Source: Candidatus Omnitrophota bacterium
GTDB taxonomy: Bacteria; Omnitrophota; Omnitrophia; Omnitrophales; Omnitrophaceae
NCBI GenBank assembly: GCA_029561555.1
Contig: JAKQXH010000095.1
Coordinates: 10,124 to 74,123, forward strand
Reading direction: 5' to 3'
DNA: 64,000 nucleotides
The position numbers and the translations under genes are program-made. Of this stretch, positions 1 through 19,063 are shown piece by piece (position 1 is the first letter of the stretch; the number at the start of each line of letters is the position of its first letter). Under the pieces are notes generated by a model, which saw nothing but the letters and a program-made list of their open reading frames with translations, had not been told where the DNA came from and did no database searches.

Positions 1-3000
1 TTTCTCCCTGCGCCACTTCGTTAAAATACTCCAAATATCCCGGAAGGATATCGTCCATTGATTGCCGGACAAAACTCGCCGGATCCAACCCGAACCATCT
101 GCGGAATATTCTCGAAAGCCTTCCCCCCTTCGATTCGGCCTTCTCTTGATCAACAACTTGGTTCACCCATCCCAAGGTTTTTTCCCGCCATCTTTCTATT
201 CTCAATCGGTTCCAATCGCTCCGAATCCTTCCCAAAGCCTCCTGATAAGCTTCCTCCACCCGGCGAACCGCAGTCACGCGGATCTCTTCCAATTCTTCGT
301 CCGCGCCGAGACTGGCACCCCGTTCGGATTTCCGGATTTTCACGATGTACGCGTCGGGAGATACAGAATACATCGGATTATAATTATCCAAAATAGACGG
401 ATCATATCCCGAAAGCATCTGAACATTCCCCTCATCATAGCCGGCTTGCTCCATAAACTCCCGCCATTGCCTTCGAGTCCATTCGGTCCTCAGCCCCCTC
501 ACATTTTCATAAAGGACCAGCTCGCCTCCGGGTTCCAGCCTGTCGAAAGCTTTCGCAATCGCCCTGGCCCGAAGCTTGGGTGGAAGATACTTGAAAACAT
601 TTCTTTCGATGACCAGCGCGAATTTTCTTCCCACGCCATCGATCTGATCGGCGGAAAGCGGCAAATAAGTGACGGCCAGTCCCATTTTCCGGGCGTTCGC
701 GCGCGCTTCATCCAAAGCGCCGGCGCAAGGATCCGTTCCGTAGATCTCGCTTGCGCCATCCTGCGCCGCGGCAAAGCCCACGATTCCGCTGCCGGTCCCG
801 ATATCCAAAACCGACTTCCCGCGAAATTCCACTCCGGCTGACTTCATTTTTTTCAGTATATCGCCGGACATACCGGCCAAATCTTCCGGAGAATACGGGT
901 AAGACGGTTCATGGTCGTACGAATGCTGGAATTCCCTCGCAAGAGCCTCCTCATACCACTCGCCGTACGCATCCCACCAAATCTCATCCGCCCGTTCCTC
1001 CCCTGACGCAAGCAGTCTGCCCGGATCGAAACGTACCGAATGCTTATCCTCCCCCTCCCACTCAAAAGCGGTTTCTCCCGAAACGGATCCGAATGAAAAA
1101 CCGGGAACCGGCTCCATCGAAGCGGGATGAGAAAATCCGGTCAGAAGAATGAATTCCTCTATCTCCGCCAGATTGCGGAAAAACTGAGCCTGCAATTTAC
1201 CAAAGTCCCAAACGGCCCCCGGAATCGCCCGTTCTATTCCTTCTTGATCGCGAGCCGATTCCGGTTCGTCCGATGCTCCAAGACTCTGCGCCGTCATAGC
1301 ATCACCGCTTCCTGATTGCGCAATAATCTCCTCCAACTTATCAACAATCGCGCCAATAGCAGGCTCATCGATATTCATCTCCAATGAGCCGGTTTTTTCG
1401 TATATCCAGTCTTCCCACTCGTATTGACCGAACGGTATCCAAACGACATCCTGAATGTCCTGGTAATGCCGGCAAAATCGGACAAGCCTCTCTCCCGCTT
1501 CTTCGGAATCATACCCCCGCGCCTTTAATCTTTCATAAACAGGAGCGAGAAAATACCAAAATTGGCTGAGCAGCTCGGATTCCTTTGTCAGCAGCCACAA
1601 TCCTTTCTCGTCGGCCAGTCCCACTTCTCCGGGATTCATCGCTTCCAGAAACGCGCAGGCCGCTTCCCGGGTTTTTCTGGCGGATAAAAATATGGCGATG
1701 GCTTGACCGGTACGTTTCTCCTGCAGGACCCGCCTTCCGTTCTCCTTCCGAAGAAACGATTTAACGGCCCGATACGCGTCATCCGAAACAAGCAGCGCTT
1801 CCTGCAATTTTGTTTTATACATGCTTTGATAACCAAGCTCCTGAAACAGCGCCATCAGCTCAGGATCATCCGCTATTTTTTTCGCCCTCACATCCAGCTC
1901 AGCCGGAAGCATACGCGTCTCGGCCAAAACAAGAGGCATGGCAATATGCAAACCCGCAAAACCGGGAAGCACTTTCCGCACATTCTCAAAAGTCCCGATA
2001 TATTCAATGATGTCACCGAACCGGGGATGGTTGAAAACAGCGTTCGCCGCTTCCTCCAAAGGCGCATCCGCCGCTATCTCTCCAAAAATCGAGCTGAGCA
2101 ACCGGGTTATTTCTTCCGATTGTTCGCTTGCCTCACCCGGCATAGCCGCAGATTCTCCCGCTGCCGGATTTTTTTCGGATTGAGGCCGCGGTATTTTTTT
2201 GAAAATCGTTCGCAAAGCTTTAAGCGTAAGCACCGGAATGTAGCGCCAGCCCAACGCCTTCCAAGTTTCCACCTCGGCCAACGCCCACTCGATTTCCTGC
2301 TCAATCGTCCATGTCCGGGATCCCCGGTCCGGCCCCATTTCCGCGGAAAGATTGTCGATAAATCCCGGCCGCCTCAGAAACAAGACTTGTCTGACATAAT
2401 CCTTGTTCACTTCTTCAAGAGGAAGCGGGCGGGGGCCGGAAATTGACATCTCTCCTTTTAGAACATTCAGGAGCTGAGGCAATTCATCGAGTCCGGTCCG
2501 TCTCAAAAACTTCTGAAAGCGGGTGGAATTCCGGTTTTCATCCATTGTCCTGAACTTAAAAGCCCTAAAAACCTTCCCTTTAAAACCGGCCCTCTCCTGC
2601 CTGAAAATAATGCTTTGTCCTGACCCGCGCAAATCAACCCAAAGAACAGCGGAAATGATCCCGCTTAAAATAATCGCGGGAAGGCTGAATATCATCAAAC
2701 GGAAAACATCCGCGCCCCTGAACAATTCATTCTTGAACGGTTTCTCCACGTAAGGCATCTCGACCAAAAGCTCGGGATAGAGATATTTTCCGAGAGAAGC
2801 CGCGCTGTCGGTTTTGGTAAACGCAATTCCTTCCATCTCAACCAGAAGATTCGGGCGGCAGACGTCCGCAATCAGAAACAAAGCCGGAATTCCCGGAAAT
2901 CGGTCCGAGCAAATCTTTTTCACCGCTTCCATATGCTCCGGCTGTTTCACGTAAACACGAATCTGGGCCACATCACGCAGCGTCGCGCCGGCACGAATGC

Positions 3001-6000
3001 CGTGGGCCTCAAGATTCTCCCGGGAAATCAGGGCTTCGATATTTTCGATCATAATTTCCGTTTGCTCTTCTATTCCTCCGGCCACCGTCTGCTGGCCTCG
3101 AATTCCAGCCGTTCCCGAGATGAACAGCGTCACGTCCCCTCCGTCCACTACCGCCTTGGCCCGCTCAAATTTCGGGGTCGCCTTTTGTTTCTGCGCATCA
3201 ACCGCGACACCGACCAAGACCTCCTGAGTGTACCGATGGGCATCAATCTGCTGGGGATTTTTGATCGGAACCACTTTCGAATCGTCGCGCGCACTTCCGA
3301 AAGCGGTAAAAGCAAGAACCACGCCGCCGGTGCTCGTCCCGATTCCGGTCGCCGCAGGATATCCGTTCGTAAAACTTGCCGCCGCATACCATGAAGCGCG
3401 TACATCGTTAAAGATCTGATATTTTTGACGCTCCCCGTCGAGCCCGACGATGTCTTCGATATAATTCCACTGGCGCACGACATCGGAAAAAGTCAATCCT
3501 TCCGCCTGAAGAATACCGTTCATGATCACGAATGAAGCTTGCGAGGCCTCGTAAGTTCCGGTTGCCGTTTCATCCTGAATCCCGCCCGCATAAACCCACT
3601 TTGCTCCGTCCTGCTCAACCACCTTGTAATGGTAAGTCCCGCCGTCACGGGAATACGATTTCGACTCAATCGACACCGATTCTTTCTTCGGGACCAGCAC
3701 GATAAATTCCGTCGTGACTTTTTCGCCGTCAGCCGGATGCTGGCCGATAAAATTCACCGGCGGCATCGATTCACCGTAAAAATCTTCAAGCACCTTTTGC
3801 ATGGCGTATTTCTCCGTGAAATGATTCGCGTCATCTTCCGCCCGGATAAAAACATTCTGCGTCATCACATTCGAGAGATTCAATCCCCGTGCCGCGAGGG
3901 CCGCTTTCACTTGACCGAGACAGTCCTCAAGCTGTTCAACCGCCGTCTCGCCTCTGACCGGTTGGATGCTGAAATAAATCTCGTCGTAACCATCCATGTC
4001 GACCTGCCGCCGGGAAATCCCCTCCCGATCTCCGCCCCCCATGCTGTTGGCCGACGGTAAAGGCAGCTCTCCGGGAAAAAATTTCACGCTGAGCCGGGCG
4101 GCATTATGAGATTCAATATAAGGTTCCGTAATCACAAGCGGCCTCTTCCGCCTCAAAGCGTTCCGGACCCGGTCGATACCGACAATTGCCGGATTATATT
4201 GTTTCCCCGACCGGACCCAGGGAATAAAATGGACATTGGGGAAATAATCCGTGCGAATGCCGTATTCCCCGTTGAAACTCAGCCACTTCAGCCATGCGGA
4301 GACCTCCTCCGGACTGAGACCGAAATTCTCCTGGGCTTCCTCCCGGAGAACCGCTTGAACGGTTCGGATATCTTCCAAAGGAATTTTCGGAAGGATATCT
4401 TCAAGGATCTCCCGGCCGGAATCGTCAAAACGCATACGCATCGTTCCTTCGTTCAGATAAAGCGTTAATCTCGAAACGGCGGAAGCCAGTTGTATCATCG
4501 GATCACCGATCCGCCGTTTCTGTTCAATCCTGGAATTACCGGAAATAATCGCAACCGGTACCCGCTTGAGCATTTTCATGAACACATTCCGCATTTTGGT
4601 CGGAGAAGAAAAACCCTCCCCCCAATTCTCAAAGAGGGTCCCGTCAATATCGGAGGCCACCATCCCTTTCCGGACAAGCATCCTCAGATCGATTTCCACA
4701 CTCCGGTTTGAATCCATTCCCTTACCCCAAATCACCACGCTCTTCTCTCCCGATTCAAGCGCTTCTAAAATCTGAGCAAGAACCCTCCTTGTCGCTTCCG
4801 GACCCGAACCGATCCAAAGAGTATTCGCTTTCGCCTCTTCTGAGCGCATCTCCGGATTCGTATCAACCGAAAAAAGAATCAGCCGTTTCCCCCGTTTTTC
4901 CAGATCCAGTTTAGCCTCGATAATCGAATGGTCATTCCCGGTCAGCTCGGAATTCTTGTAGAACTCGTCCCCGAAATAAAGGCCCAAATCATAATTCCCC
5001 ATCGAAAAGAAATCCCGGATCGCGTACCCCTTGCCGGAATTTTGATGAGCGATATCGATCGTCGAGAAAGTCGTATGCCGAATTTCGTAACGTCCTCCCA
5101 GCGCCCGGTCCAGCTTGGCCGCAAGATTTTTCCGCACATCATGCGTCACCCCGGGAACCGGCCCCCCTTCGATGGATTTCTCTCCCAAGCTCGAAGCAGA
5201 CCGCCGCATTTCTTCCAAACCCGCCTTGAGCGTTTCCATGAACGCGAAGGGCTGGGGAAAAATATGCCGCAAACTTGCGCCTGGGAAATTGAAAGGGATC
5301 AGCTCTTGTTCGAACGTCGCGATCTCGGCTTCCAAAAACCGGATCGCCTCGGGCGGATTATCTTCGTAATATTTCCGCACAACTCTCAACGTAATTCCCG
5401 CAAGACTTCTTGCCTTGCCGGCATTGAAATCAGCGATACCGGATTTAACCCGGTCAAAGGCTTCATAAAGCGAATCGTTCTTGTGAGGCACTTCCGTAAT
5501 TCCGGGATCCGTAACATAAACGTTCCCGGTAATTTCTTCGCGCATGATGTTGTTTAAATTTTCCCTTACGTCGGTGATGCGATAAGGAAGGCGCTTGGCA
5601 TCCAGTTCTTCGATCAGAAGGGCCTCGTAGGCAAGTTCCCAGTCGCCGTCGTTAAGAAGCTGGCGAAGCGTCCGGCCGTAAATCCATTGAGCGGGCAAAA
5701 TTCCGTACTGAGAGTTCCCGGAAACAGGAACAAACCCGGCAACTCGGGGGCCCGATCCGGCCTCCGTCAGTTTCCGGGCCATTTCCAACTGAATCGGCGG
5801 CATTTGTCCCGCAAAAAACCCGATTCGGTAAGATTGACCGCCCGCCTCAACGCGAACCGGAATCAGATCGCGGGACGAACCTCCCCGTGGTTCGATATTT
5901 TCAATGAAAACTTTTATTTCGGAAGAATCATCGATCTGGGCTTGCGGCATGAGAACTTTCAAAGTCCGGGCGACATACCGGGGATCAGCCAGTTTTTGCG

Positions 6001-9000
6001 CCAACAAATCAAGTAAAGGTTCCCGGAAAGGCCGGCCCTCATTGATATGCTTTTCCAATTCGTTTTCCAGTTCGCCAAGACTGGCGCCCTTCTGTTCAGT
6101 GGCTTCGGAATGAAGATAGGCAGTTCCCCCTTCCGACTCTTTTTTACCTTCCGGTTCAGGAACAAGCGCAAAAACGGCGAGAGAAACCGCCCCTAAAAAC
6201 AGCAAAACATTATCGGCGAGATAAAACAGCGCCGTTGCAATGCCAATCAATCCCGCTACGGCCAGAGAAGTCGTCCATACTCTCTGCCAGGCAAATGAAA
6301 TCTCGGGCTTCAAATTCTCAAACTCTCGCGCCCGGGGATTTTCCCCGAGCAACGTCCGCCGCAAATCATCTTGTCTCATAATATCCAGTTGAGCGGCGGT
6401 CATGCGTTTGATCCCTTCCGCCGGAATGGGCATGTCCTGCCATTGCTGAGCGGCCCGATGCCGCCGCAATCTCTGCGCCGGGGTTTCTTTCACTTCCGCT
6501 CTTTTTGCGACTTTCCGGTGAAGATAAAAAAGCCCTCCCGCCGCGATTGCCCCCAAAAGAACCGGCAGCATCGTTTCCGTCGCACCGAGCGACTGGGCGG
6601 AACTTGTCCCGGAATCTCCGGTCGTGCCGGCCCGCCTCAATTCCCGTTCCCCGAGCTTTTCCCTCAATTGAATTTCAAGGCTGGCAATGATCCCTGCCAA
6701 CCGGTTGGCTTCGCCATCCAGCATTCCGGCGGCTTCTTCCAACGGGTCAATTGCCGACGACGGCACGCTGGTTTCCAAATTCGTAATCGCTTCGTCCAAT
6801 TTCTTTTTTATTTCTTTCCGGACCGGCAAAATCGCGCCGCTAAAGTCGGAGGAAATTTCTTTTAGGCGCACGATATCGGAATCCAATTCATCGGAAAATA
6901 AAACATTAAGCCGTTTAATTTTTTCCGTAACCTTTCGGATATCCGCCGCGAATTTTCCGTATTTCGCGACATAGCCGCGTTCCGATTCCAACTCATGCTC
7001 GATCTGCCGGATCCGGACCTCCAGCGGATCTTCTTCGGCGGCAGCCGATGCCGCCATTCCGACATCGCGCCAAGTCCCGTCGGCCCGCAAAAGCTGAATC
7101 CGGGCTTCCGGCCGGAACGCGAGTTCTAATTCGATCGCCGGTTCCTTTTTCCGGAAAATGCGGATTGAATATCTTTGCACTTCCCGGCTGGAGACAAGAT
7201 TTCTTCCCGCAATCGTCTGCATAATGCTGTGATAAACCTGAAGCAGGCGGGGAAATGTCGTGTTCCGCTGCGCGGGGTCCCGCCATAACTTGGCAAAATC
7301 TTTCGCCGCCTCCCGGTGCTCTTCCATCTGCCCCAGCCGGTCGATCATGAAGCGGGCCTTCTGATTACGGGTATCCCTCGGATATGGCGCGGGGTAGGTA
7401 TATTTAGTCCCTTCCCGGTCAGTGTAGGAAAAATAGCTATGTCTCTGCCGGTCATCGTGCAATATCTCAGCCAGTTGGCTTTTTTCATCCCCCGCATAAT
7501 CAACCCGGATGGACGTCACGGCATCAGCGGCCAAATCAAGGCCCAACCGGTTTTCTCTGACTAATCCCGCGATCTTTTCCCTCGCCGGGACAGGAACCCA
7601 ACGGCTCCAGGTGAATTTAAGCCCCGCTATTTCTTCGTCGGAAAACGCCTGATTGCCGAGGCTGGCGCCTTCGGCAGCCGCGTGTCCCGCGATTTCAAGA
7701 AGTTTGTCAACATACCGCTCAATCACTTTCCACTCAAACGAAGTTCCCGGTCTCCCGTCGATTTCTTCAAACTGCCATTGAATCAGCCCAAGCAACCGGT
7801 CCTCAAAAAGAACGGGCCACCGGGAATCAAGGAAAGAGTGCTCGCCTTTCAAAAAATAACCCGTCGGATCGTGGGGTGAGACGGAAAAAGTCCCAGACCG
7901 AATAATCTGAAGATACCCCTCCGGCGAATGATGCTTTATAAACAAGGTAAGCGGCACCGAAGGAGTTCCCTTTGCCGATTTAAAACCAAATCCAATCGTA
8001 TTGGCGCCAAGCACATAGAGCATTCCCTTCAGAAAATTCTTCGCGGCCGCGCGATTGGTGGCAATTTTTGCCTTTCTCATTAATTCAGGCTCGATCACAT
8101 AAACATGCCCGTCAAACGCATCTTCAAGCAGGCCGGCCATATCCCGCGCCGGCATCACATGAATCCCGACGGCAACCTTCAGCGTACGGGCAAGCGTCTG
8201 AATTTTCGGAACCATCCGCGTTTCAAACTGTTCAAAAGTCTCCTCCGGAGATGCGGGACCTCTTCTCATCGCGAGCGGGAGCAAGGCAGGAGCCCTCCCG
8301 GGCTGAGGCCGGGAAAAATCAGCGCCGAGAAATTCGAGATAATCCTGTGCCTTTTGTCTACGCTGGTCTTCTCCTCCCAGGGACTGTCCCTCTCTCTCCT
8401 CCTGCCCCAAGCTTGAAGCCTCAGCAGCCAGACCGATTTCCTCCCAGCCATCGAAATCCCAGTACCCTTGAGAATTTTCAAGGCGAAGCCGGTTTCCTTC
8501 TCTCCGGAAAAGATCATACTGGCTTCCGCCGTCCCAGAAAGTCCCGTTCAAAAGAGCGCCCCCTTCCGGAAGGACATTCCCAATCCGGCTCAAAGCGGAT
8601 TTAATTTTCTCATCCGAAAAATAGCTGTATTTCCCTCTCATCAAAAGACCGGCCACTCGGACAAAATCATGCCGCGGCGCAAGGGGTTGGAAAACATCAT
8701 GCTCCGCAAACGCAAGACGGTCGGGATTTTCCCGGGCAAACTCCTCCGCCTCAGGATTGATCAGGCTTATGATCCGAGTATCCGTCTCTTCCGTTTCCGG
8801 ATAATCAAAAAACATTCCCAACTGCCCCGCAAGCCACTCCAAGCTCCCCTCGCCGGTAGGCTCATGAAGGTTCGGGCCCACGAACAACTGGAGGATCTTC
8901 CCCTGCGGATCATAAACACAGGTAATATTTCCTTTTTTGCGAACGATGAAATTCAGAACTTTATCGTAACCGACGACTCGAACGTTTTCTTCCCGGTACC

Positions 9001-12000
9001 GGAGAGCCATCTCATAGGTGCCGGTTCCGTCGGAAACCCCAAAATCACCGATGGTCATCGCTTCCCCGGGATGCCCCGCTCGAAATCGCCTAAGTTCTCC
9101 GTCAATCACTTCAAAAGATGCCTCCAACCGTCCTTCCCAGGTTCTCCGGTTGATCGTTAAATTGTTGCCGTCCGCTTCTCCGCTAAACATAAGAACTCCG
9201 AACTGAATATGCCGGAGGATATTGATCAAATCTTTTCTTTTCCCCGGCTGGGACTGAAGGCGTCCGTCAAAATAAAGCTCCCTCAGCTTCGCGTAGGAAA
9301 GGAGGCTTCGGTTCAACATAAGCGCGATCACCGTCAATTCGTACCGCCGGTCGTCCGCGGGAAGAGCAAGAAAATCCGAAATTAATTTTCCGACATCATA
9401 ATTTCCGAGCCGCAAACGCGCATCCTTCTGATCGTCGGAAAGCGGGAATCCGAACGAGCGCATCAGATCGATTCCGAGAAAATGTTTGGCAAGCGCCCGT
9501 GCGTCATCCGCGGCAAGTTCACCCAAAGAAGCTCCCACATCAGCCGGCAGCGGGAAGCGGATGGTAATTTCGACATTTTCGCCGCTGTTTCGGGCTTCAA
9601 TCGTGCCGCCACAGGCCTCGACCAAATCCCGGATCAGCGCACCGCGATGCCACGGAGCATTGCGATCTTCCTTGACCTCAAATATCGTCTCGGGATCGAT
9701 CGCGCCTTTAAACGTAAATCGAAATACCGTCTGCCCTTGCTCTTCAACAGCATGGATATAAAAATCCTCGTTTTTCGGGGCATTCCAGAAAATATTCAAA
9801 AAGATATTGTCGATGAAAAATTCCTTTCCCCAAAGGCGCAGTCCCGGATCCGCATCAGCATGAAATTTTCCGCGTTCATCCATGTGCCGAACCTGAGAAC
9901 CGAATCTTCCCATGCCCAAAATCTCCGAAACGCCAAAGAACCGTTTCTCTTCAACCAATTTTCCCTCGCTGCAAAAAAGAAGAAGGTCTCGTCTGTCTTC
10001 GTAAAACCCCGACAGCACCCTTACAAGGTCCTCATACGCCTCATCCCTTTGAGAAGCCTCCACATTCGACAACTCCCGAAGCATCTTTTCATAAATCTCG
10101 ACATGGCTTCTCATGGCGCCAAGCCACCCCTCCGCCCTTTCCACAATCAGGGGATCCGTTTCAAACCCCGTAAATTGCTGATCGGAGGACGTATTGGCAT
10201 GGACCCACCACATATAACCGCTATGCTGTCCTTCATTAAAAATCCGGTAAAGTTTTTCACTAGTCTCCGCGGACGCGCTAAGGCGTTTGATCATGGGCCA
10301 TAAAAGAAACCCCGTCCCCGCCATTTTGTGGACCATATACCCAACCAATCTCAGCGTTCTTTGAAACCGCACTTGGGCTTCGGGGGTAACCTCTTCAATC
10401 CCTTTTTCCGCATTGGCTCTTGAGCGAACAAGAATCCCCGCCGGTTCCCTGCTGCTCCATCGACTTTGGGCGAGGACTACGGAAACTTGACTTTTAAGAA
10501 GACTTTCCTCCAAATTCTTTTTAAGCGTCTGGTCATCCGTGGCCCGCAACATCGAGACCAGCACGCTTTCAATCTCGTCCTGCGTCACTCCCATTTCAAA
10601 AATCAAACGCCAGATACTGTCGCGATAATTCTTATAAAACATTACTTCATGAAACGTCTTGAGCATTTCCTCGAAATCATCCTGATGACCGCTTTGGCTT
10701 ATCTCCTGAACTTCCATCAACCGGGCGTAATGCGCAGCGTGTTGGCTATAGGCGCGAATTTCCCCCGCAATCACCGGTGCCAATTCGTCGGCTTCGGGAA
10801 TTCCCTTTGCTCGCAAAGCATGAAACACTTTTTCGGCAAGCTTCTCCGGGACCTCTTCCGCGGGAACTTTTTCCTTCCATCGAAGCGGCAATCTCAAACG
10901 GAATCGCGCGCCCTGCCCGGCATTTTCCGCCTCAATACTGCCCCCGAACATTTCCATAAGCCTTTTGGCCCAGTAAAGGCCGTAACCGGTCCCGTGTTTT
11001 TTGGTCGTGAATGTTCTTTTGAAAAGCCTGGGAAGGATTTCGGGCGGAATCCCGCCGGCTTCGTCTTCAATCTCAACCCATACCTCATTTTGAGCTTCGT
11101 TCATTCGGAAATAAATTTTCGGATTGACCGCTTCGGGTTTCCGCTCGCGATATTGCTCGAGGGCGTTTGCCAAAATCTGCGTTACGACAAAAATCATTCC
11201 GTAAGGAAGCTCAATCCCCGAAAACGCGTCCCGGTCGAAATGACTTTCAACGGTTACTTCTTCCCCGTAATCCTCAATGAACGCCCCTGTGGTATTCCTT
11301 AAAAATTCATCAAAGGTCACCGAACGGTTCACGCCCCCCACGACCGCGGATAACCTGAGAAGGTTCTTCGTGTACGTGCCGGCCGTCTCCATCGCAAGGC
11401 GAAGATGCCCGAGTTCCCCGGAATATTCCGCAAACGTTTCGCGGTCCTCCGCGCCGAGTCCCGCAATTATCCGTTCGATGCGGGAGGCAAGCTGGGCCGC
11501 CGCAAAAATACGGCCTTTGTAATTGTGAACCCGGCGGTTAAAAGGAAGCCCCTGATCGACATTTCTGAAATTCAGAAGGTCCCGCAGCATCGCATGGTAT
11601 TGATTCAGCTGCCGGACAATCCCCTGATCCTCAAGATGATTTCCGGCCTTTTCAAGCAGGCCCTTCAGTTCCCGGAGAAAAATGCTGAAACGCGCGGCGG
11701 CATCGCTCACCCCGCCGTTCAGGAAACTGATATCGGCGGGCTTGGACATGGGCCGCCTCGGCATGGCGTCTAAAATCGGCGCGCTAAAATCGAACGGTTC
11801 TTCGAGCTGACGGTAAATTTTCCTCAGCAGCTCGACATGGAACTTTTCATCAACTTCCTTCTGCGCATAATCGAACCGGTAGCGGTTCTTAACATCCGGA
11901 CGGATGTCCCGGATCTCGCTGTCATAACCGGTAATTTGGTCTTTGGAAATAACACTGCCCGAGACAAAAATAAACGGCCCCCGAAAATCGAGTTTTTCGC

Positions 12001-15000
12001 CCTCATAAGCGGCATCCGGTCCCATTCGCAAAGAATGAAGGGCATCGTAACCGTCCCGGTTCCTCGCCCCCCCCTCCTGCTCGGAGCCGAATTCGTAATC
12101 GCAAAGGACGATGATTTTCTCATCCGGCACCCCCTCGGCGCGCAGCTGTTTCACCTGCGCGAGGACTTCATCCACACTCCCGACGGTGTGGATATGGTCG
12201 AAAAACCCGCCGACAACGCTTCGAATCGTATCCTGAATGAACGGCTTATCGTCGGCGATAATCACATGGCAATCACGGTAGCGGGCGGTTATTTCGGGCG
12301 CAATTCCCGATTCTTCGGGCGTGATCTCAAGAGGAGGAAAAGAAAATGTCTCCCCCCATGCCGGCTCCCCGGATTCTTCGCCTTCCGCCGCCTTTTCGCT
12401 CGTTCCGGGAGCAGATGCTTCGCCATATTCCCCGCGCATTGAAAAGGCCTTGACGCTTTCCTCGAGTCTCCCGACATCCGCCCCTTTCAATTGGACGGAA
12501 ATCTGCCCTTTTTGATATCGGCTCCAAAGATCCGGGTATTTCTGAAGCTCGGCGATAACGGCCGAATCTTCCCCCGATAAAATGACCACCGCACCCGTGA
12601 AATCGCGCGTTTCAAAAGCCTGCCTCAAAAACCGGACGCCGTTATCGCTTCGATCCGTGTCATAATTCCCAAGCTGAAAATCCACTAGAATAAAATTGAC
12701 CTCCGCATCCGCGGTAAAAGCTTCGAGGGCTTCCTCCCGGGTAGCGGCTGCGGCAACGCCCTTGACTTCCCCCATGTCATTAAGGTCGAGTTCTATAGCC
12801 GAACGCGTTGATTGGTCATCATCCAGCATCAAAACCCGTATTGGGGTCACGCCTGGGTTTGACCCCAAGCTTGCGCCTTTAGTTGCCGGAAGATTTTTAT
12901 CCCGCCGCTCGGCCGTCGCCTGTATCACCCGGTTGAATTCCGGCCATAAGGTCCGCACGCTTTCGAAAAAGTCTCGGTGAATTTCAAGAAGTTCGACGTC
13001 TGTCTCGGCTGAAATCGTCGCCGTCCGGACCCCTTCTTTCGTCATGAGCGCGATCTCCCCGAAATAATCGTCTTCCTTCAGGGAAAATTTTTCCCGCGCC
13101 GTCTTTCCGTTTCGCTTGATTCTTTTTTCGCCCCCGACCCGTCCTCTCTTGATAATGAAAACACTCTCCGCCTTGTCACCCTGCTTCAGGATCACGCTTC
13201 CCGCCTTGAATGAACGGTGCTCGGCCCGTGCCGCGAGATACGCCAAGGCATTGTAGCCTAGGGGTTCGAAGGGATTGTAGGGGCGGGGATTCTGCTGCAT
13301 TTTCTCGAGAAAACCGATGTTTTCCCTGGTTCGCCGGATTCGCTCTTCCGCTTCCGGCGTCCGGATCAGCCGGTCAAACTGATCCGCCGTCAAAGTCAGC
13401 GTCGTTACTTTCGAAATCGCCCGGACCGTGGCGCCGCGTTTTTCGCCCGTCACAAGCGCCAGTTCCCCGACCGACGTCCCTTTCCGGACATACGCCAGCA
13501 CCTTCCCGTTCTGAATCACGGCGGCATCGCCCGAGAGAATGATGATGAAGTCCGAACTTCCTTCCCGCGCGTAAGTCCCCTGTTCGATCATGACCTCCTG
13601 AGGCTTGAATTCCCGTATCGCTCCCGTCTCGAGAATCCTCTGCAATTCCTTCTGGCTTTTTTCGGAAAGGAGAGAGACGAGACTCACCACCTGCAGGAAA
13701 TAATTCCGGCGGAGTTCCCCGTCCGAAGGCAGAATCGTTTCGGTTTTCATCGGCCTCCCCGTAACGATTGAAATATTTCTCTTTAAATTGCCGTCCGGGT
13801 CCGTGAAAAAATATCGGAAGCGGGACATCACGCGAGCCAGGTCCCGGCCGCGTAGGCCTTCCTCCCGTAGGACTCCGAGATAATCCGGCGATCCCCGCAA
13901 CGCGCTCAATTGCGAGCTCCCGGGAAAACCGATCACACGGGAGACCCTGCCCCGGGAATACCCGATTTTGAATCCGATCGAAGGATAGTGCGTGGGATTA
14001 TGCCGGATCTCGATGCTGACTTTTTCCCCGTCCGGCAGGGAAAGTTGATTTTTCATAAAATCCAGCAGCGGCACAAAATCGACATATCCCGCCTGTTCGA
14101 TGTCTTGCCCTAAAATGGTCTCGGCCCGTTTCAGGAAATCAAAATACACGGGAAAGGACGTCAGCAATGTCGTTTTCTTCCCCGTAAAAAGCCATTTCAA
14201 AAGCGCGCTGTCTTTCCCCAAGCGGTTATTGGTCAGAAGCACATACGGGACATCGTCTTTGGTAAGATTCAAAAGTTCTATTTTCTGAAGGGCTTCGAAA
14301 GTCGGATCCACCAGAATCCCCTTCCCCCCGACCCACACGATAAAACTCGGAATCCGATGCCCTCTTCCCGGTGCTTCACCGGTATCCAAAACCGTATAAC
14401 CGAAACGGGGCCTCAGCTCTCCGGCAAGCAGTTCCCGAACACTCTGCGGGATAGTTCCCGAAACGTGATATGGCCTGCGATAATCGACGTCGATGATGCG
14501 CTCTTCCGGAGCCGGAATCTCGACCGGCCGATAACCTTGCCCCGGAAATGAAGGCGCGACATAGGAAACTTCCCGCACCGTGAATCTTTCCTCATCCCGT
14601 TCGGCGCGAATAATTTCCACTTCGCCCAAAACCCGGCCGGGCCGGCGCGCATCCACCATCGGCACCCTGACCTTGTTCTCTTCGAAAGGAATAAAATTCA
14701 CAAAATCGGAAAGGCGGCGCCGGCCTTTTCCGCTTCCCGCCGCGGACAGATTCTGCGCCGCGCGTATACTTGCCTCAACCGCGGAAATTTCGCCGAGTAT
14801 CTCCGGAGCATCCGGGGCCAGTCCTCTTTGCTGCGCCAAAGCCCTTTCCCATCTTTTCCGAAACGTTTGCCAATCCGCCGACTCAAAATCGACTCCGAAC
14901 ATCGTCTGCTCAAGGTACCCTTTCAGGGCGTCCATCTGCTCTTGAGTCAGAACGAGATTAATCCGGATACCGCTCCGCATCGTGAACGCGAAAAACTCCA

Positions 15001-18000
15001 ACACCGATCCCAAATCGGCGTAATTGATGCCTCCCCGGAAAAACGCGGGCGGAAGAACAAAGGTCACCGGGAAATCCTTCCCCGAATCCAACTGCCCGCG
15101 AAGATCTCTCAGAGTTTCAAACGGCAGGGTAAATTGAATTTTCCCGAATGCGGTTTCCACGATCTGATATCCGGCGAGTTCTTTTTCGACGTCGGGACCG
15201 AGCGCCGAGCGAATCTGTTCCCGGAAGCGCAGAGGAAAGTGGCTGAAACGGTATTTGAACGCGCTCACCGCCGCCCTTCGGAGTTCTTCCGGCGAAAGTC
15301 TCGCCGCCTTGGCAATGTTCACGTATTCTTCGAAAAGACTCGTCCCGAAAATCCCCGAATCGTCCGTGTTGATCGTCACGATCGGCTTCTTCCCGACCAA
15401 CCCGTCGCTCGCGGTCGTTCCGTTCGGGAAGCTGTGCCTCAAAAACCTTCTCAAAGGATGATCTCCGTAACTCGCCACCGGTCCGATAAACACATTGGAG
15501 GTCGGATTCGCCTCTATCACAATCTCCCGCTCCGCGATCCGGTTCAGGACATAATTCTGCCGCGCCGCCAAGTTCCGGACGGCGTCTTCATCGTAGCGAA
15601 TCGTCACAAAACTGCCCTGATAGCGCGGAGCGTCCCTCATCAGCAGTAATTCCGAAAAAAGCCTCCGTTCCTTCGCCGCATCAACGGAAGCCCCTCGCAA
15701 AATCGAATAAATGAGCGGCGCAATTACCCCGTCCACCTGCTTGTATTTTTTCCGGTACCCGCGAAGTTCCCTTTTCAATCTCCGCGTATCAATCGCAAGC
15801 CCCGCTTTGCCGAGCCGCCAGGCGTCGAATTTAGCCGCTTTGAGATCGTAATAAATCTGAAAAAGCCTTTCGCTCACATGTTCCCGCCGCTCCGTCCCCA
15901 AAAACTGCGAGACATCCACTCCGACGACCAACCCGTGGCCGATCCGGTTGATCCCCAGCTCAATCGCCTCGTCCACATGGCGGATCGCGCTTTCGATCGA
16001 CGTATTTTCAAAATCCTCGCCGACATGATATGTGAGCCCAAGCTGGGGCTCCCCCCGTTCGCCGCGCCGCCGGTTGTAATCCTTGACCTGCCGGAAGACA
16101 TCAACAAAATGCGGCGGAACTTTCAATTGCTCCGCGTTGGCGACGTCGAACCCGACCACGTATTCCCTGAGTTCGGGATAGAGCGCCGAATAGTATTCCA
16201 GGATATGAAGCAAGGCCTGCACCTGCTTCGCAATTGTCCCCATGCTGTGATATTTCTCGATCGTGACGATAATTTTCGTCTCAAGGCCGACTTCGTCGTT
16301 CAAAAGGCGGGTGTTGACCTCATTTTCCGCGGCACGCAATCCCCGGATCGTCGCGAGAAGCCTCTCAAGTGTCAGCTGGATCAGTTTCTGCTCGTCTTGT
16401 TCCCGCGGCATGGAGGTGCGGAGTTCAAGAAGCCTGACCCCTTCTTTGTAGTTCCGGAGCGCAATTCTTCGCGCGACATCCTCGATAATTTCGGGAGACC
16501 CTTTGGAAAGACGCCCCGCCACTTCATAGACCACCACGAAATCTTCCAAATGCCCTTTCTTTTCCGGACGATATTGCGTAAAGTGGGTAAATTGATTTTT
16601 CAGTCCTTGCAATTCACTCTGAAGCTCCTCCTGCCGGCTCGCCGAGGCTTTTCCTTCCTCCAATTGTTTTCTAACTTGCCGGGCACGGCTCAGGAGGCCG
16701 TTCAAATCCACCGGCTGGCCGAAGATCTTGCTCAGTTCGACATTCAAATCGTCCCAGCGGACGTCGTTTCTCATCAGCGCGAGAGACCACAAATCTTCCG
16801 GATGGATCGATCCTCCGAAATGCGCGTGCCCTTCCGCCAGCGGAATCTGTTTCAGAAAAGCCTCGACTTCGCTCCAGTCCTCGCCCAAACTCGCGCCGCG
16901 AGCCGCGATCACCGTTTTCTCCTTCTGCTCAAGAATCTTGATCATCTCCCCGGCTAACGCTTTTCCGGTCATCCCGGACAAATCGGCAAGAAGATCCCGA
17001 TAGGGGGTTTGCGACAACGCCGCGGCCGAAAGGGCAAAAATCTGTTTTCGTTCCGTCACGCTCAAGTCATCTTTCCCGTTCAGCCGGTTCAAAATCGCAA
17101 GCAGCGCAAAACGATCTCTCAGACCGAAAGATTCGTCCCCGGCGATTATTTGTTCAACGCCTGAAGGATCGTCAAAATAAAATGCGTACGCCATGATCCT
17201 CATCCCAAACTGGGGACCGTTCTTCTCATCCCGTTCGCCGGGCATTTCATCCCCCGTCAATCCGGGTACTTCCGGAACGCCACCAAGACTCGCGGCGACC
17301 GCTCCCGCAAGTTCCGGCTGATGCCTTCGCAAAACAGCCCCTTTCGCGTCTTCAATCGCGCGGGCGCGAACCGTAGCGGCGGCCGCTCCCCACATGGCTT
17401 CAAAATCCCCGGCCGGCATGAAATTTCCGGCCGGCATCGCTTCGGAAGTCTCGATTTTCGGAGCAACTCCCATCATCGCGTTGAGATAAATCTCGCTTCC
17501 CTGTTCCGCCTTGGTAATCCTCGGTTGAATCGATACGTAGGAAATTCCCGCTTCCCGCGCCCATGTCTCAAGCCCCTGCGCGTGAAAACCTCCGGTCAAA
17601 ACGGCGGCCCCCGTTCTTTTCCCTTCCCGCATCGCTTCGAGAATCCTCTCCCGGAACGCCTCTTCCCGCTTCACGGCCAAACCGTAAAATCGGGCCGCAT
17701 TCTCAAAAACAGAGTCCATCTCCCCGGCCGCCCGCAGCCCGAGTTTTCCCGTTTTCACGCCCCGAAATTCGCCGATCCTTTCCGCAAGACGCGAAGGCGT
17801 CCGGCTCTCCCGATCCGCCGTAAGCCGGTCATAATCCCGCCGGATCAGATCCAGCCTGAGCAGTTTTTCGGTAAGCCAAACGTCACGGATCAACAAAATG
17901 GTTTCCTTCTCTTCCTCCCCCCGGGCAAGCCGGGAAAGAATCGCGTCCGCCAGTTTTTCCGTCTCATCAAAAACCGCTTGGGCGTTTACTTCCGCCCAAA

Positions 18001-19063
18001 AACTTTTCCGTGCCGCCCATTTTGAAAAATTCGGATACTGCCGGAAGTCAATCCCGCCTTTCGCGCTCTCATAAAGTTTCTCGAGAAGAAATCTGGGATT
18101 TTCGCCCGCTTCCGTTCCGGTTTGCGCCTTTAACTTCCGGAACGCTTTCAGCAATTTCCCGTTCACCTTCCCCTTCAAAGCCCCCTCCAGCGCATCCGCT
18201 TCTTCGCGGACCCTCAAAACATCCAGCGATGATTCCAATTCCTTCATTTTCAGGATCCGGACCAGAGAGGGATACTCGTCCTGCCAGGCGGGATCTTTTA
18301 AATCCAGCGACAGAAATCTCTCCGAAAATTTGCAAAGCACTTTCAGAAATTCCAGAATGTCTTTCGAGTCCGACTCCTCATACCGCCGCCACGATCTGAC
18401 AAACGCCCGCAACGCTCCGGTCAACCGGCGGTGTTCCGCGTCTCGCAATGCCGCATGAATACCCCTGAAAAATTCCTCCCGTTCGTCTCCCCGGCCGACC
18501 ACCGCCCGAAACAAATCGATGTCCTTCCGGTACAATCCGGCGTCTTCGATCCCATGCGCCCGCACGCCGTCCGTTTCCCCTTTTCTGAAAAAGCTTTCCG
18601 CCAGGAGGAACTTTTCCATCCCGTTGGAATGCCCTTGCTTCATCAGCGAGTCAATGACTTCAAGATTCCAGGAAACCTCCTTGAAGAAGTGGAATTTTTC
18701 CGGGCGGAGTTCTCCGGTAGAACCTTCCAAAAAGAACTGGCGAATGCCGTAATGCGCCCGGAGATAACTCAGAATTTTTTCAATATTCCGCTGGGCTTCC
18801 GGGTTTCCGTGAGCGTCCTGAATCTGAATGATCAGACCGGAATCCGAGGCAGGATAGTGGGAACACTGAATCTCACCCAAACGGGAAGGAATTTCGATCT
18901 CTACCGGGACGGCCTGAAATTCTTTCGGACCGTTTTGCAGCTGCAAAACGGGAGCCGCATAAGACACGGTCTGAACGAGAAAAGTAATAATTGCCAGGCA
19001 GGAAATAATCCGCCGGAATTTTCTGAAAAACCGTTTTTCGGAATCTAAAGTTTTGGGGCTCAT
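1..19063 (-). CDS. Giant multidomain protein with N-terminal Sec signal/anchor. Partial: the C-terminus lies beyond the left window edge, with >=6354 aa in the window.
   Basis: Manual reverse-complement translation. ATG at 19063-19061, in-frame TAA upstream at 19117-19115, and no ATG/GTG/TTG between them. The frame has the codon top coordinate = 1 mod 3. I read all in-frame plus-strand triplets from 2-4 up to 19061-19063 and none is TTA/CTA/TCA (= TAA/TAG/TGA on minus). N-terminus [45 protein letters not shown]. Left-edge peptide ...[40 protein letters not shown]. The ORF track has no minus-strand entry in this frame anywhere in 1-19063. The other five frames give only short R/P/S/F-rich ORFs. 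Many textbook domain motifs occur in this single frame (see domain features). Confidence 0.92.
   Translation of the reverse strand, partial: [6354 protein letters not shown]
480..900 (-). other. Giant ORF domain: class I SAM-dependent methyltransferase
   Basis: [50 protein letters not shown]...[13 protein letters not shown]...[15 protein letters not shown]. Motif I is VLDIGTGSG (786-812). An acidic post-I residue and the post-III PGG are present. Confidence 0.75.
2210..2740 (-). other. Giant ORF domain: monotopic phosphoglycosyl transferase (bacterial sugar transferase, WbaP/PglC-type)
   Basis: Checked for 2461-2760. Re-entrant helix [23 protein letters not shown], then [27 protein letters not shown]...[28 protein letters not shown]...RRPGF. 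All signature motifs are present (KFRTM, DELPQL.NV, GPRP). Confidence 0.8.
2830..3990 (-). other. Giant ORF domain: three tandem YjgF/RidA-like repeats (FkbO/Hyg5/XanB2 chorismatase-like architecture)
   Basis: Repeat 1: [38 protein letters not shown]. Repeat 2: [36 protein letters not shown]. Repeat 3 (checked for 2881-3180): [68 protein letters not shown]...[16 protein letters not shown].G and the terminal E.E.iA are typical of this fold. Confidence 0.5.
4250..5150 (-). other. Giant ORF domain: HAD-IIB-type phosphatase motifs in permuted order
   Basis: Motif III/IV-like [12 protein letters not shown]...[25 protein letters not shown] (about 4925-5090) lies N-terminal to motif I [15 protein letters not shown] (DIDGTL about 4640-4657, checked) and motif II [10 protein letters not shown] (about 4521-4558). 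Confidence 0.55.
5450..5900 (-). other. Giant ORF domain: protein-kinase-like/APH-like fold (weak)
   Basis: [27 protein letters not shown] resembles a catalytic loop (D-x-x-x-x-N) followed by a DFG-like metal-binding motif. The upstream beta-rich segment [17 protein letters not shown] could be the N-lobe. Speculative. Confidence 0.25.
6160..6572 (-). other. Giant ORF: internal transmembrane segments (1 + 2)
   Basis: [21 protein letters not shown] (about 6519-6572) and [41 protein letters not shown] (about 6160-6290). Both are long uncharged hydrophobic stretches flanked by basic residues. Confidence 0.6.
8480..9100 (-). other. Giant ORF domain: CheR-like SAM-dependent methyltransferase (tentative)
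   Basis: [21 protein letters not shown] (compare CheR iWsaGCStGEEpYSlA), ...[55 protein letters not shown] (compare hnLl...fDlIfCRNVlIYF...L.pGG.L). Checked for 8941-9120. Confidence 0.5.
9540..9830 (-). other. Giant ORF domain: second, degenerate HATPase_c-like fold
   Basis: [47 protein letters not shown]...[35 protein letters not shown]. It has the kinase-ATPase topology and the C-terminal GG.I....G....I.FP pattern but lacks DxGxG. Likely a pseudo-ATPase. Confidence 0.3.
10890..11800 (-). other. Giant ORF domain: histidine-kinase-type core (helical region + GHKL/HATPase_c)
   Basis: Translation checked codon by codon for 10861-11220: [23 protein letters not shown] (N box) ... [21 protein letters not shown] (G1) ... 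[41 protein letters not shown] (G2). The upstream helical segment (about 11300-11800) may be a DHp. The H-box is not canonical. Confidence 0.8.
11900..12275 (-). other. Giant ORF domain: receiver (REC)-like domain 2 (divergent)
   Basis: [47 protein letters not shown]...[10 protein letters not shown]...PFIFVSGSV. The DD pair, the D in LCDYEF and the S in VSGS follow REC spacing. Confidence 0.45.
12500..12850 (-). other. Giant ORF domain: receiver (REC)-like domain 1
   Basis: [58 protein letters not shown]...VVILSGED. It has the acidic pocket DDD, a candidate phospho-acceptor D in VDFQ, and a conserved S. Confidence 0.6.
12960..13270 (-). other. Giant ORF domain: cyclic-nucleotide-binding domain 2
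   Basis: [37 protein letters not shown]...[42 protein letters not shown] (FGEIAL...RTAT motif). Confidence 0.75.
13370..13690 (-). other. Giant ORF domain: cyclic-nucleotide-binding domain 1
   Basis: [103 protein letters not shown]. This is the classic CAP/Crp-effector pattern, including GELAL...R.ATV.A. Confidence 0.8.
13950..14420 (-). other. Giant ORF domain: metallo-beta-lactamase-fold-like with degenerate metal motif
   Basis: [52 protein letters not shown] ... [15 protein letters not shown] has the MBL strand/loop pattern. The HxHxDH position reads NNRLGKDS, so the domain is probably non-catalytic. Confidence 0.3.
15240..16870 (-). other. Giant ORF domain: adenosine/AMP-deaminase family (amidohydrolase fold)
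   Basis: All hallmark motifs occur in canonical order: [17 protein letters not shown] (about 16815-16850), [10 protein letters not shown] (about 16130-16160), TYHVGEDF (about 16013-16033), NRIGHG (15932-15946), IEANPTSN (15494-15514), [11 protein letters not shown] (TINTDD at 15359-15376). Confidence 0.8.
17520..18830 (-). other. Giant ORF domain: Tiki/TraB/ChaN/erythromycin-esterase-superfamily-like (tentative)
   Basis: Paired motifs [25 protein letters not shown] (DAHGNPEAQ at 18791-18817) and [16 protein letters not shown] (about 17575-17600). They resemble the N- and C-terminal GxH-type motifs of that superfamily. By-eye assignment only. Confidence 0.3.
18956..19063 (-). other. Giant ORF domain: Sec-type signal peptide or signal anchor
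   Basis: aa 1-36 are [36 protein letters not shown], followed by AP. There is a basic n-region (KRFFRKFRR), a ~12-aa hydrophobic core and a small-x-small c-region (S-Y-A). Confidence 0.6.

Follow-up and report, generated by a model that had tools for sequence, protein, structure and literature searches.

Positions 10,124 to 74,123 of contig JAKQXH010000095.1 (assembly GCA_029561555.1, Candidatus Omnitrophota bacterium), a stretch of 64,000 nucleotides to which we refer as the window, carry on the minus strand most of the gene for a giant protein, in which a domain of the adenosine deaminase (ADA) fold is joined to a metallo-β-lactamase (MBL)-fold domain and two cyclic-nucleotide-binding (cNB) domains. 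The 1,340-aa cassette, arranged in the order deaminase, region X, MBL-fold domain and two cNB domains, is on balance probably a cyclic-nucleotide-gated adenine-nucleotide deaminase analogous to Cad1. We infer its substrate, its regulation by cyclic nucleoside monophosphates (cNMPs) and the direction of that regulation, and its cellular compartment. Nucleotide-deaminating enzymes of the ADA fold (RdrB, Cad1, KomA) have only recently been seen as immune effectors or signal generators. The cassette would extend this set by a version under the control of cyclic mononucleotides, a previously undescribed pairing of sensor and effector, in a phylum whose members are ultra-small and possibly predatory, and outside any recognisable defence operon. 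It also forms a compact, expressible unit with clear substrate and ligand predictions.

The predicted metal and catalytic site of the deaminase is complete. Six deaminase motifs follow one another in order in a single minus-strand frame (residues 746-1235; Table 1), and the Pfam model PF00962 (A_deaminase) matches with E=2.1e-27 and 96.5 bits over a cut-off of 27, far beyond chance. Residues H746, H748, H1013, E1016, H1043, D1234 and D1235 show little or no variation among 60 homologues and align with the motifs of Salmonella ADA (6n9m) and RdrB. A first-pass annotation, written from the letters of the window, had listed the full motif set and implied an intact metal site, and both statements hold. 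It had also called the set that of an adenosine/AMP deaminase, which is right for the fold and the catalytic residues, but a Gly in place of Asp19 sets it apart from that of a nucleoside deaminase.

This Gly lies in the HAHFG motif at the position of mouse ADA Asp19, where an Asp occurs in 0 of 27 aligned family members. Asp19 of mouse ADA binds the 5'-OH of the ribose, and a change from Asp to Gly has been reported in the ATP deaminase Cad1 (PMC12669630). The Asp-Asp pair of the last motif (TINTDD) is kept. Moreover, the spacing between the GH and NPTSN motifs amounts to 143 aa as opposed to ~25 aa in Salmonella ADA 6n9m, and of 240 family members, RdrB-sized proteins included, nearly all have 95 aa or more, with a minimum of 46 aa in the 520-760-aa class. 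The "insertion 3" of RdrB occupies the same place, after the last catalytic His (PMC9994260). In our AlphaFold2 model, helices at domain residues 326-456 match this long insertion, and ~80 and ~120 extra residues are found at two insertion sites common to RdrB-like proteins. The Gly replacing Asp19, together with the RdrB-like fold and insertions, suggests that the substrate is likely a phosphorylated adenine nucleotide rather than adenosine.

The structural comparison placed the domain closest to RdrB. The AlphaFold2 model, with 60 homologues as input, reached a pLDDT of 95.2 and a pTM of 0.94. Foldseek searches against the PDB returned RdrB first (8hr7/8fnv; E 7e-16 to 2e-14, TMq ~0.60), followed by ADAL, bacterial ADA, adenine deaminase, MAPDA and ADGF/AMPD (TMq 0.43-0.51). 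At E<=0.001 there were 94 PDB matches, the top-ranked of which were all RdrB, ADA, ADAL, adenine deaminase, ADGF or AMP deaminase, in addition to one design on an ADA scaffold (3t1g). With a profile restricted to the closest clade (A4, built without RdrB-sized proteins), RdrB was matched at 1e-15, Salmonella ADA at 9e-14 and Cad1 (9c67) at 8e-4. Curated models put the domain between families, and membership in RdrB, Cad1 and Add failed in each case: the best NCBIfam match, RdrB (NF041744), gave 3.5e-26 and 92 bits against a cut-off of 800, the generic adenosine deaminase model TIGR01430 gave 1.9e-25 and 89.6 bits against an equivalog cut-off of 216.55, and the best PADLOC matches, RdrB and CARF_ADA, gave 5e-20 and 4.8e-20, the latter covering only model positions 247-480, which are its ADA part. 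At E<=0.001 the family comprises 2,434 representatives, largely uncharacterised, with RdrB among them. The deaminase is a member of an insertion-bearing branch of the adenosine/AMP-deaminase fold that includes RdrB, and it is not a housekeeping adenosine deaminase. The classification by profile and structure that the first-pass annotation had proposed as a check confirmed a deaminase nearest to RdrB and gave no reason to reassign the region to a non-deaminase amidohydrolase. Its premise that free-standing adenosine deaminases are cytosolic housekeeping enzymes was, however, too strong, given that ADA2/ADGF enzymes are secreted and that RdrB, Cad1 and KomA serve in defence.

The likeness to RdrB, the ATP/dATP deaminase of RADAR (8fnv, 8fnw, 8hr7), comprises the best Foldseek match as well as the best PDB profile match, the TYHVGEDF motif, the histidine set with the catalytic Glu, the lack of an Asp19 equivalent, the large insertion after the last catalytic His and a longer stretch separating the first two metal ligands. 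In contrast to RdrB, the window deaminase lacks the N-terminal "insertion 1", as its HxH motif lies 18 residues past the cassette junction, leaving no room for an extension of ~150 aa. RdrB also stands alone in a defence operon together with RdrA, whereas the window domain resides in a cNB-fused giant. No match to RdrA or to an AAA+ protein was found by PADLOC or Pfam in the giant protein, and the neighbouring genes are metabolic. We therefore rejected assignment to RADAR on the missed NF041744 cut-off, the missing RdrA partner and the lack of space for insertion 1. Cad1 itself was rejected for want of a CARF sensor domain, for which the Pfam scan of the giant protein gave no match, and Pycsar because the PADLOC matches to PycTIR and PycC were confined to the generic cNB domain. 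A genome scan for relatives recovered loci L004 and L005 and otherwise mostly RdrB-like genes of Firmicutes and Bacteroidota, and the viral contigs searched contained no relative. The small homologues P0133 and P0128 lie in surroundings that are metabolic or not long enough to be informative.

The C-terminal part of the cassette links the deaminase to cyclic nucleotides. The two cNB domains, which the first-pass annotation had placed downstream of the deaminase, were recovered by the Pfam model cNMP_binding (E=1.8e-31, two stretches), and a profile search with them hit PKG and PKA-R in their own tandem cNB domains, with E-values down to 2e-41. Both phosphate-binding cassettes are intact (GELAL..RGAT and GEIAL..RTAT). 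The entire five-part cassette recurs at 40-48% identity in P0122, a separate gene of 1,623 aa, in P0123 (3,308 aa) and at locus L004, where the homology (L003/P0122, P0123, L004) spans exactly residue 732 to ~2044-2105. The module 16883-12877 suggested earlier from the window sequence almost exactly equals the cassette at 16879-12860. Region X accompanies the MBL-cNMP unit: it is kept in P0122 (E=7e-58) and P0123 (4e-44), and there is weak conservation in P0271, which stands alone. Indeed, the unit of region X, MBL and two cNB domains also occurs alone, without the deaminase, in P0271-273, which have Pfam matches to the Apyc1 family and Lactamase_B. In L001, the contig with the closest homologue of the deaminase (51% identity), a cNB region immediately precedes the deaminase on its upstream side and an MBL domain between the two is lacking; the cNB region is a single tblastn match spanning the tandem cNB region of the query. 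This permuted arrangement indicates that the link between deaminase and cNB domains has arisen or been kept in two arrangements. L001 (ENA ERZ28669879 ctg34414, 55 kb) resembles another giant open reading frame broken by frameshifts in an assembly of 4x coverage; its genes all lie on one strand, and the frame changes within the deaminase.

The MBL-like fold named by the first-pass annotation is real, and intact in relatives, but degenerate in the window protein. Lactamase_B matches here with E=0.005, under the cut-off, whereas homologues match the model properly. The metal site reads TNNRLGKDSA in place of the THNHADHDRG or THVHADHDGG of homologues, so that the HxHxDH motif is lost; in addition, "GSS" stands where "GDT" would be expected, and a deletion of 49 aa has removed the distal His residues. 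The MBL metal motifs are intact in P0122, P0123 and P0271-273. Judged by its sequence, the window domain cannot be a hydrolase and is a catalytically dead phosphodiesterase (PDE)-like domain.

Selection on the cassette could be estimated from L041, an orthologue on a metagenome contig that is 91% identical across the ADA cassette. The ratio dN/dS between the window protein and L041 (Nei-Gojobori) was 0.065 for the deaminase (dS 0.65), 0.098 for region X, 0.064 for the degenerate MBL domain, and 0.14 and 0.06 for the two cNB domains. Catalytic motifs and cNB motifs are all identical in L041, and the degeneracy of the MBL domain is shared. The deaminase is maintained under purifying selection and is presumably an active enzyme, and the MBL domain, to judge from these ratios, is retained as something other than a hydrolase, possibly as a scaffold or an allosteric relay.

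We propose that a cyclic mononucleotide would bind the tandem cNB domains, and the retained pseudo-PDE scaffold would relay the signal, switching the deaminase on or off. The deaminase would then turn an adenine nucleotide into its inosine form, with ATP or dATP as the most likely substrate and dAMP, AMP or cAMP as possible ones. As a result, the nucleotide pool would be altered or an inosine-nucleotide signal made, and in the relatives the MBL phosphodiesterase could end the signal. The same logic is found in Cad1 (CAAD), the type III CRISPR enzyme that converts ATP to ITP upon binding cA4 or cA6: a sensor of a second messenger is coupled to an ADA-fold deaminase bearing the Gly in place of ADA Asp19, with the cNB domains here standing in for CARF and the degenerate PDE for a ring nuclease. 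Some Cad1 enzymes degrade their own signal, the counterpart of which would be the MBL phosphodiesterase in relatives of the cassette. The cNB sensor is, however, C-terminal to the deaminase, whereas CARF is N-terminal in Cad1; the sequence relation to Cad1 is weak, as seen with the closest-clade profile, and the insertion in the window deaminase is much larger. ADA-family enzymes with phosphorylated adenine substrates also include KomA of Kongming (dAMP) and CadD of Leptospira (cAMP), which we set beside the window deaminase by description only. Neither has been reported fused to cNB domains or inside a giant protein, yet both indicate that the ADA fold has been recruited repeatedly for nucleotide signalling.

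Several points weigh against a cNMP-gated deaminase of adenine nucleotides. Domain scans of the giant protein and of the window found no cyclase. With the closest-clade profile, the sequence is almost as near to canonical ADA as to RdrB, the Asp-Asp pair is kept where Cad1 has Asp-Asn, and the ligand geometry was taken from the alignment only. Moreover, ATP cannot be assumed as the substrate, because nucleotide deaminases of the ADA fold vary in what they accept (ATP/dATP for RdrB and Cad1, dAMP for KomA, cAMP for CadD). Finally, the signal-like N-terminus predicts an extracytoplasmic site, where ATP and cNMPs are not normally available.

The main rival explanation, which we hold to be rather unlikely, is a device that quenches cAMP. 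The deaminase would act on cAMP itself, as CadD of Leptospira does, or on 5'-AMP released by the MBL phosphodiesterase, with the cNB domains providing substrate-level activation as in GbpB, so that the cassette would irreversibly destroy a cAMP signal. All three domain types of the cassette handle cyclic nucleotides, and the order MBL, cNB, cNB is familiar from cNMP phosphodiesterases that are activated by cNMPs. The Dictyostelium proteins GbpA and GbpB (PdeD/PdeE, class IIb), which are PDEs activated by cNMPs and composed of an MBL and two cNB domains (PMC11988041), have the same domain order as the C-terminal two-thirds of the cassette and as P0271-273. In P0122, P0123 and P0271-273, the HxHxDH motif is kept along with a signal of the Apyc1 family (PF23023) that ranges from faint to listed. 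A cAMP deaminase is known in the ADA superfamily (Goble et al., 2013, as cited in PMC4398509), and the loss of Asp19 would suit any 5'-substituted substrate. The Dictyostelium proteins differ in being eukaryotic and cytosolic and in having no deaminase fused in front, and the window MBL domain has lost their metal motifs. Against a quenching device, the phosphodiesterase site is destroyed both here and in the 91%-identical orthologue, while the low dN/dS of the deaminase persists. L001 joins the deaminase to a cNB region without an MBL domain, and the structural neighbours of the deaminase are ATP/dATP and N6-methyl-AMP deaminases.

We consider it distinctly unlikely that the protein is an exported or delivered effector acting on the nucleotides of prey or host, where it would deplete ATP/dATP and accumulate ITP/dITP, with cyclic nucleotides of the target cell activating it and thereby sparing the producer. 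In favour of this idea is the N-terminus, behind which, as the first-pass annotation had stated, the deaminase lies; its first motif starts at residue 746. A basic stretch is followed by 19 hydrophobic residues and SYA/AP, with a Kyte-Doolittle peak of 1.94 at residues 19-37, which predicts a Sec-type signal or signal anchor and hence export. The segment is kept in L041, a similar start is found in 10 of 16 large ADA-bearing relatives, and in P0122 and P0123 the ADA cassette follows directly behind it. Hydropathy by hand and the positive-inside rule would place residues 38-4160 outside, as the next hydrophobic helix (~4165-4183) is followed by a basic stretch. In addition, Omnitrophota giants have been reported to be mostly signal- or transmembrane (TM)-bearing and have been linked to a predatory lifestyle, and the toxicity of accumulated ITP is documented in the literature as the principle that RADAR and Cad1 exploit.

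On the other side, no delivery apparatus was identified. The earlier suggestion of an exported protein stands as far as the signal-like N-terminus goes, but it conflicts with the cNMP-binding, receiver and HATPase_c domains, which, like the methyltransferase domain and the RIO-type kinase of relatives, normally need cytoplasmic ligands or cofactors. Topologies drawn from hydropathy by hand belong to a kind of prediction that the literature calls unreliable for giant proteins. The TM cassette, with the helix at ~4165-4183 and a hairpin at 4262-4301, is the only one with internal TM helices. It is wholly missing from the 75-87%-identical L041, so that the predicted topology is not conserved between close relatives. 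Without it, the N-terminal part of L041 would lie on the same side as its clearly cytoplasm-type HAD and FkbO cassettes. A splitting of the giant into cassettes could possibly change the answer on export. Just before the hydrophobic core we also noted the pattern RR[IV]I[SA], as in KFRRIISCL (window 18995-19021, minus strand, residues 15-23), IRRVISVG (P0124) and LRRIIAAI (P0126), which resembles a twin-arginine motif; L041 has KR there.

It seems very improbable that an ordinary adenosine deaminase of purine salvage has merely become part of a large protein, without special regulation: TIGR01430 and PF00962 do match and all canonical catalytic residues are there, but the TIGR01430 score stays far below its equivalog cut-off, Asp19 is a Gly, extra residues fill the two RdrB-like insertion sites, and the fusion partners are conserved at 40-48% identity and recur in permuted form. 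We give equally little credence to a deaminase that is a non-catalytic scaffold, for although the adjoining MBL domain demonstrates that selection in the giant protein can preserve an enzyme domain that is dead, that domain lost all its metal ligands, whereas every metal ligand and catalytic residue of the deaminase is kept here, in the orthologue and in distant homologues.

The giant protein in which the cassette resides is real and not an assembly artefact. Starting with the ATG at 19063, the frame stays open as far as the left window edge (position 2), corresponding to at least 6,354 aa. These are identical to residues 1-6354 of P0121, which came from an exhaustive search and has a complete length of 7,365 aa. 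An NCBI and a JGI assembly contain it at the same length, with split GenBank versions named Candidatus Omnitrophota bacterium. In phylum, in length above 5,000 aa and in its signal and TM segments, it resembles the giant proteins described for Omnitrophota (West-Roberts et al., 2023, preprint; 2026 complete-genome preprint), and their "Module 1" likewise contains methyltransferase, HATPase_c and HAD domains. Word searches of both preprints found nothing on a deaminase, on domains for cyclic nucleotides or on a junction motif.

Such a junction motif recurs along the window protein. The tripeptide SLG occurs 15 times in 7,365 aa against 3.2 expected, always between recognisable domains, and 14 of the 15 copies are preceded by A, Q or S, with GASLG as the commonest form; each of about sixteen cassettes ends in [GA][AQSR]SLG. 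The codons vary between copies, which indicates conservation at the peptide level and rules out a DNA repeat. Across the other long open frames of the window, 21,477 aa in all, such a motif appears once. In L041, which is collinear with the giant at 66-87% identity, 10 copies were counted and 2.3 expected. Cassettes 596-728, 3183-3564 and 4162-4331 are present in the giant but not in L041, which joins "...VAASLG" directly to "EGWEEAEAFLRQIPLA" where the small cassette 596-728 is missing. Behind "ARSLG", the sugar-transferase cassette of the giant is exchanged for another one in L041. For all three cassette insertions or deletions and for the one replacement, the breakpoint lies exactly after SLG. 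SLG motifs likewise delimit the part of the ADA cassette that is homologous to P0122 and L004, and the bounds of this cassette are identical in L041.

The simplest reading is that SLG would mark a polyprotein processing site, or at least a selected junction. Domain scans detected no protease family in the giant protein or the window. The other ADA-bearing giants searched have no SLG-like motif; it is lineage-specific. The motif bears on a question raised in the literature, namely whether such giants act as one chain or many and where they are cut: one of the Omnitrophota preprints calls the cleavage points unknown, and a word search of the other found no mention of cleavage, linkers or motifs. 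Taken together, one could imagine that a protease cuts the polyprotein after SLG and that the released 1,340-aa cNMP-gated ATP/dATP deaminase is exported or delivered onto the nucleotide pool of another cell, a combination to which we assign a low probability. If true, processing sites would be defined for the first time in giant proteins of Omnitrophota, and effectors that deaminate nucleotides would gain a new class.

Table 1. Coordinates of the giant open reading frame, its cassettes and its motifs; positions refer to the window unless given as residues.
Feature	Position	Strand	Remarks
Giant open reading frame	2..19063	-	first 6,354/7,365 codons; leaves window at left edge
N-terminal signal-peptide-like or signal-anchor segment	18953..19063	-	residues 1-37, MSPKTLDSEKRFFRKFRR-IISCLAIITFLVQTV-SYA/AP
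N-terminal "head" cassette	17279..18952	-	residues 38-595; ends in AASLG
Small cassette	16880..17278	-	residues 596-728; ends in GASLG; missing from orthologue L041
ADA cassette	12860..16879	-	residues 729-2068; ASLG at either end
Deaminase domain	15179..16876	-	residues 730-1295
HAHFGGS	16808-16828	-	first deaminase motif, starts at residue 746
GFDVANAE	16130-16153	-	deaminase motif
HVGED	16013-16027	-	deaminase motif
RIGHG	15932-15946	-	deaminase motif
Helical insertion, ~140 aa	15515..15934	-	residues 1044-1183, after last catalytic His
EANPTSN	15494-15514	-	deaminase motif
TINTDD	15359-15376	-	deaminase motif
Region X	14444..15178	-	residues 1296-1540
Degenerate MBL-fold domain	13694..14443	-	residues 1541-1790
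Two tandem cyclic-nucleotide-binding domains	12884..13693	-	residues 1791-2060
ASLG closing the ADA cassette	12860..12871	-	residues 2065-2068; counterpart ahead of cassette at 16880-16891
Region of TM-bearing cassette	5971-6577	-	residues 4163-4364, compared with L041
SLG junction motif, starts of copies within window	residues 592, 725, 2065, 3179, 3551, 3561, 3801, 4158, 4328, 4625, 5423, 5927, 6251	-	

The genes around the giant open reading frame are ordinary chromosomal ones, encoding a YdiJ-like dehydrogenase, glycerate kinase, GlpD, PFK, RlmN, Dus and GshB. The rest of the giant (window 2-12859, minus strand, and the C-terminal 1,011 aa outside the window) is a mixture of signalling and metabolic cassettes. 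The former include two receiver domains, HATPase_c and an HD domain, and the latter a HAD-IIB-like domain, an FkbO/Hyg5 chorismatase with RidA, a polyprenyl-phosphate sugar transferase and a SAM methyltransferase, in addition to several cassettes of 230-450 aa that match no family.

The head cassette carries the motifs D.H.N.EAQ.N, EG..G, GIED and GGFH. Its domain is common to the N-termini of the deaminase-bearing giants P0145 (E=2e-18) and P0156, and to P0274, always just behind the signal-like segment. It matched no Pfam or NCBIfam family, and its model (pLDDT 65) had no significant match in the PDB. A suspected resemblance to a protease of the Tiki/TraB/erythromycin-esterase type gained no significant support: erythromycin-esterase-like structures appeared only at E=1.2-5 with a probability of at most 0.25.

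Other relatives bear the deaminase in different company. A sister clade of P0124, P0125 and P0126, with ~40% identity to the window deaminase, has both Cad1-type changes, HxHxG and NTDN for NTDD, and is fused to HATPase_c and a RIO/APH-type kinase, not to cNB domains. A second, more distant group of the ADA fold was found in other giants of 2,600-6,300 aa (P0143, P0145, P0156, P0168, P0181 and P0252), with the motifs H.H..M[SA], HV[GAS]ES and TDDLTLFGT; the IMG annotation of P0168 reads FHA / adenosine deaminase / ppGpp-related. The existence of this second group indicates that deaminase domains are a recurrent ingredient of giant proteins.

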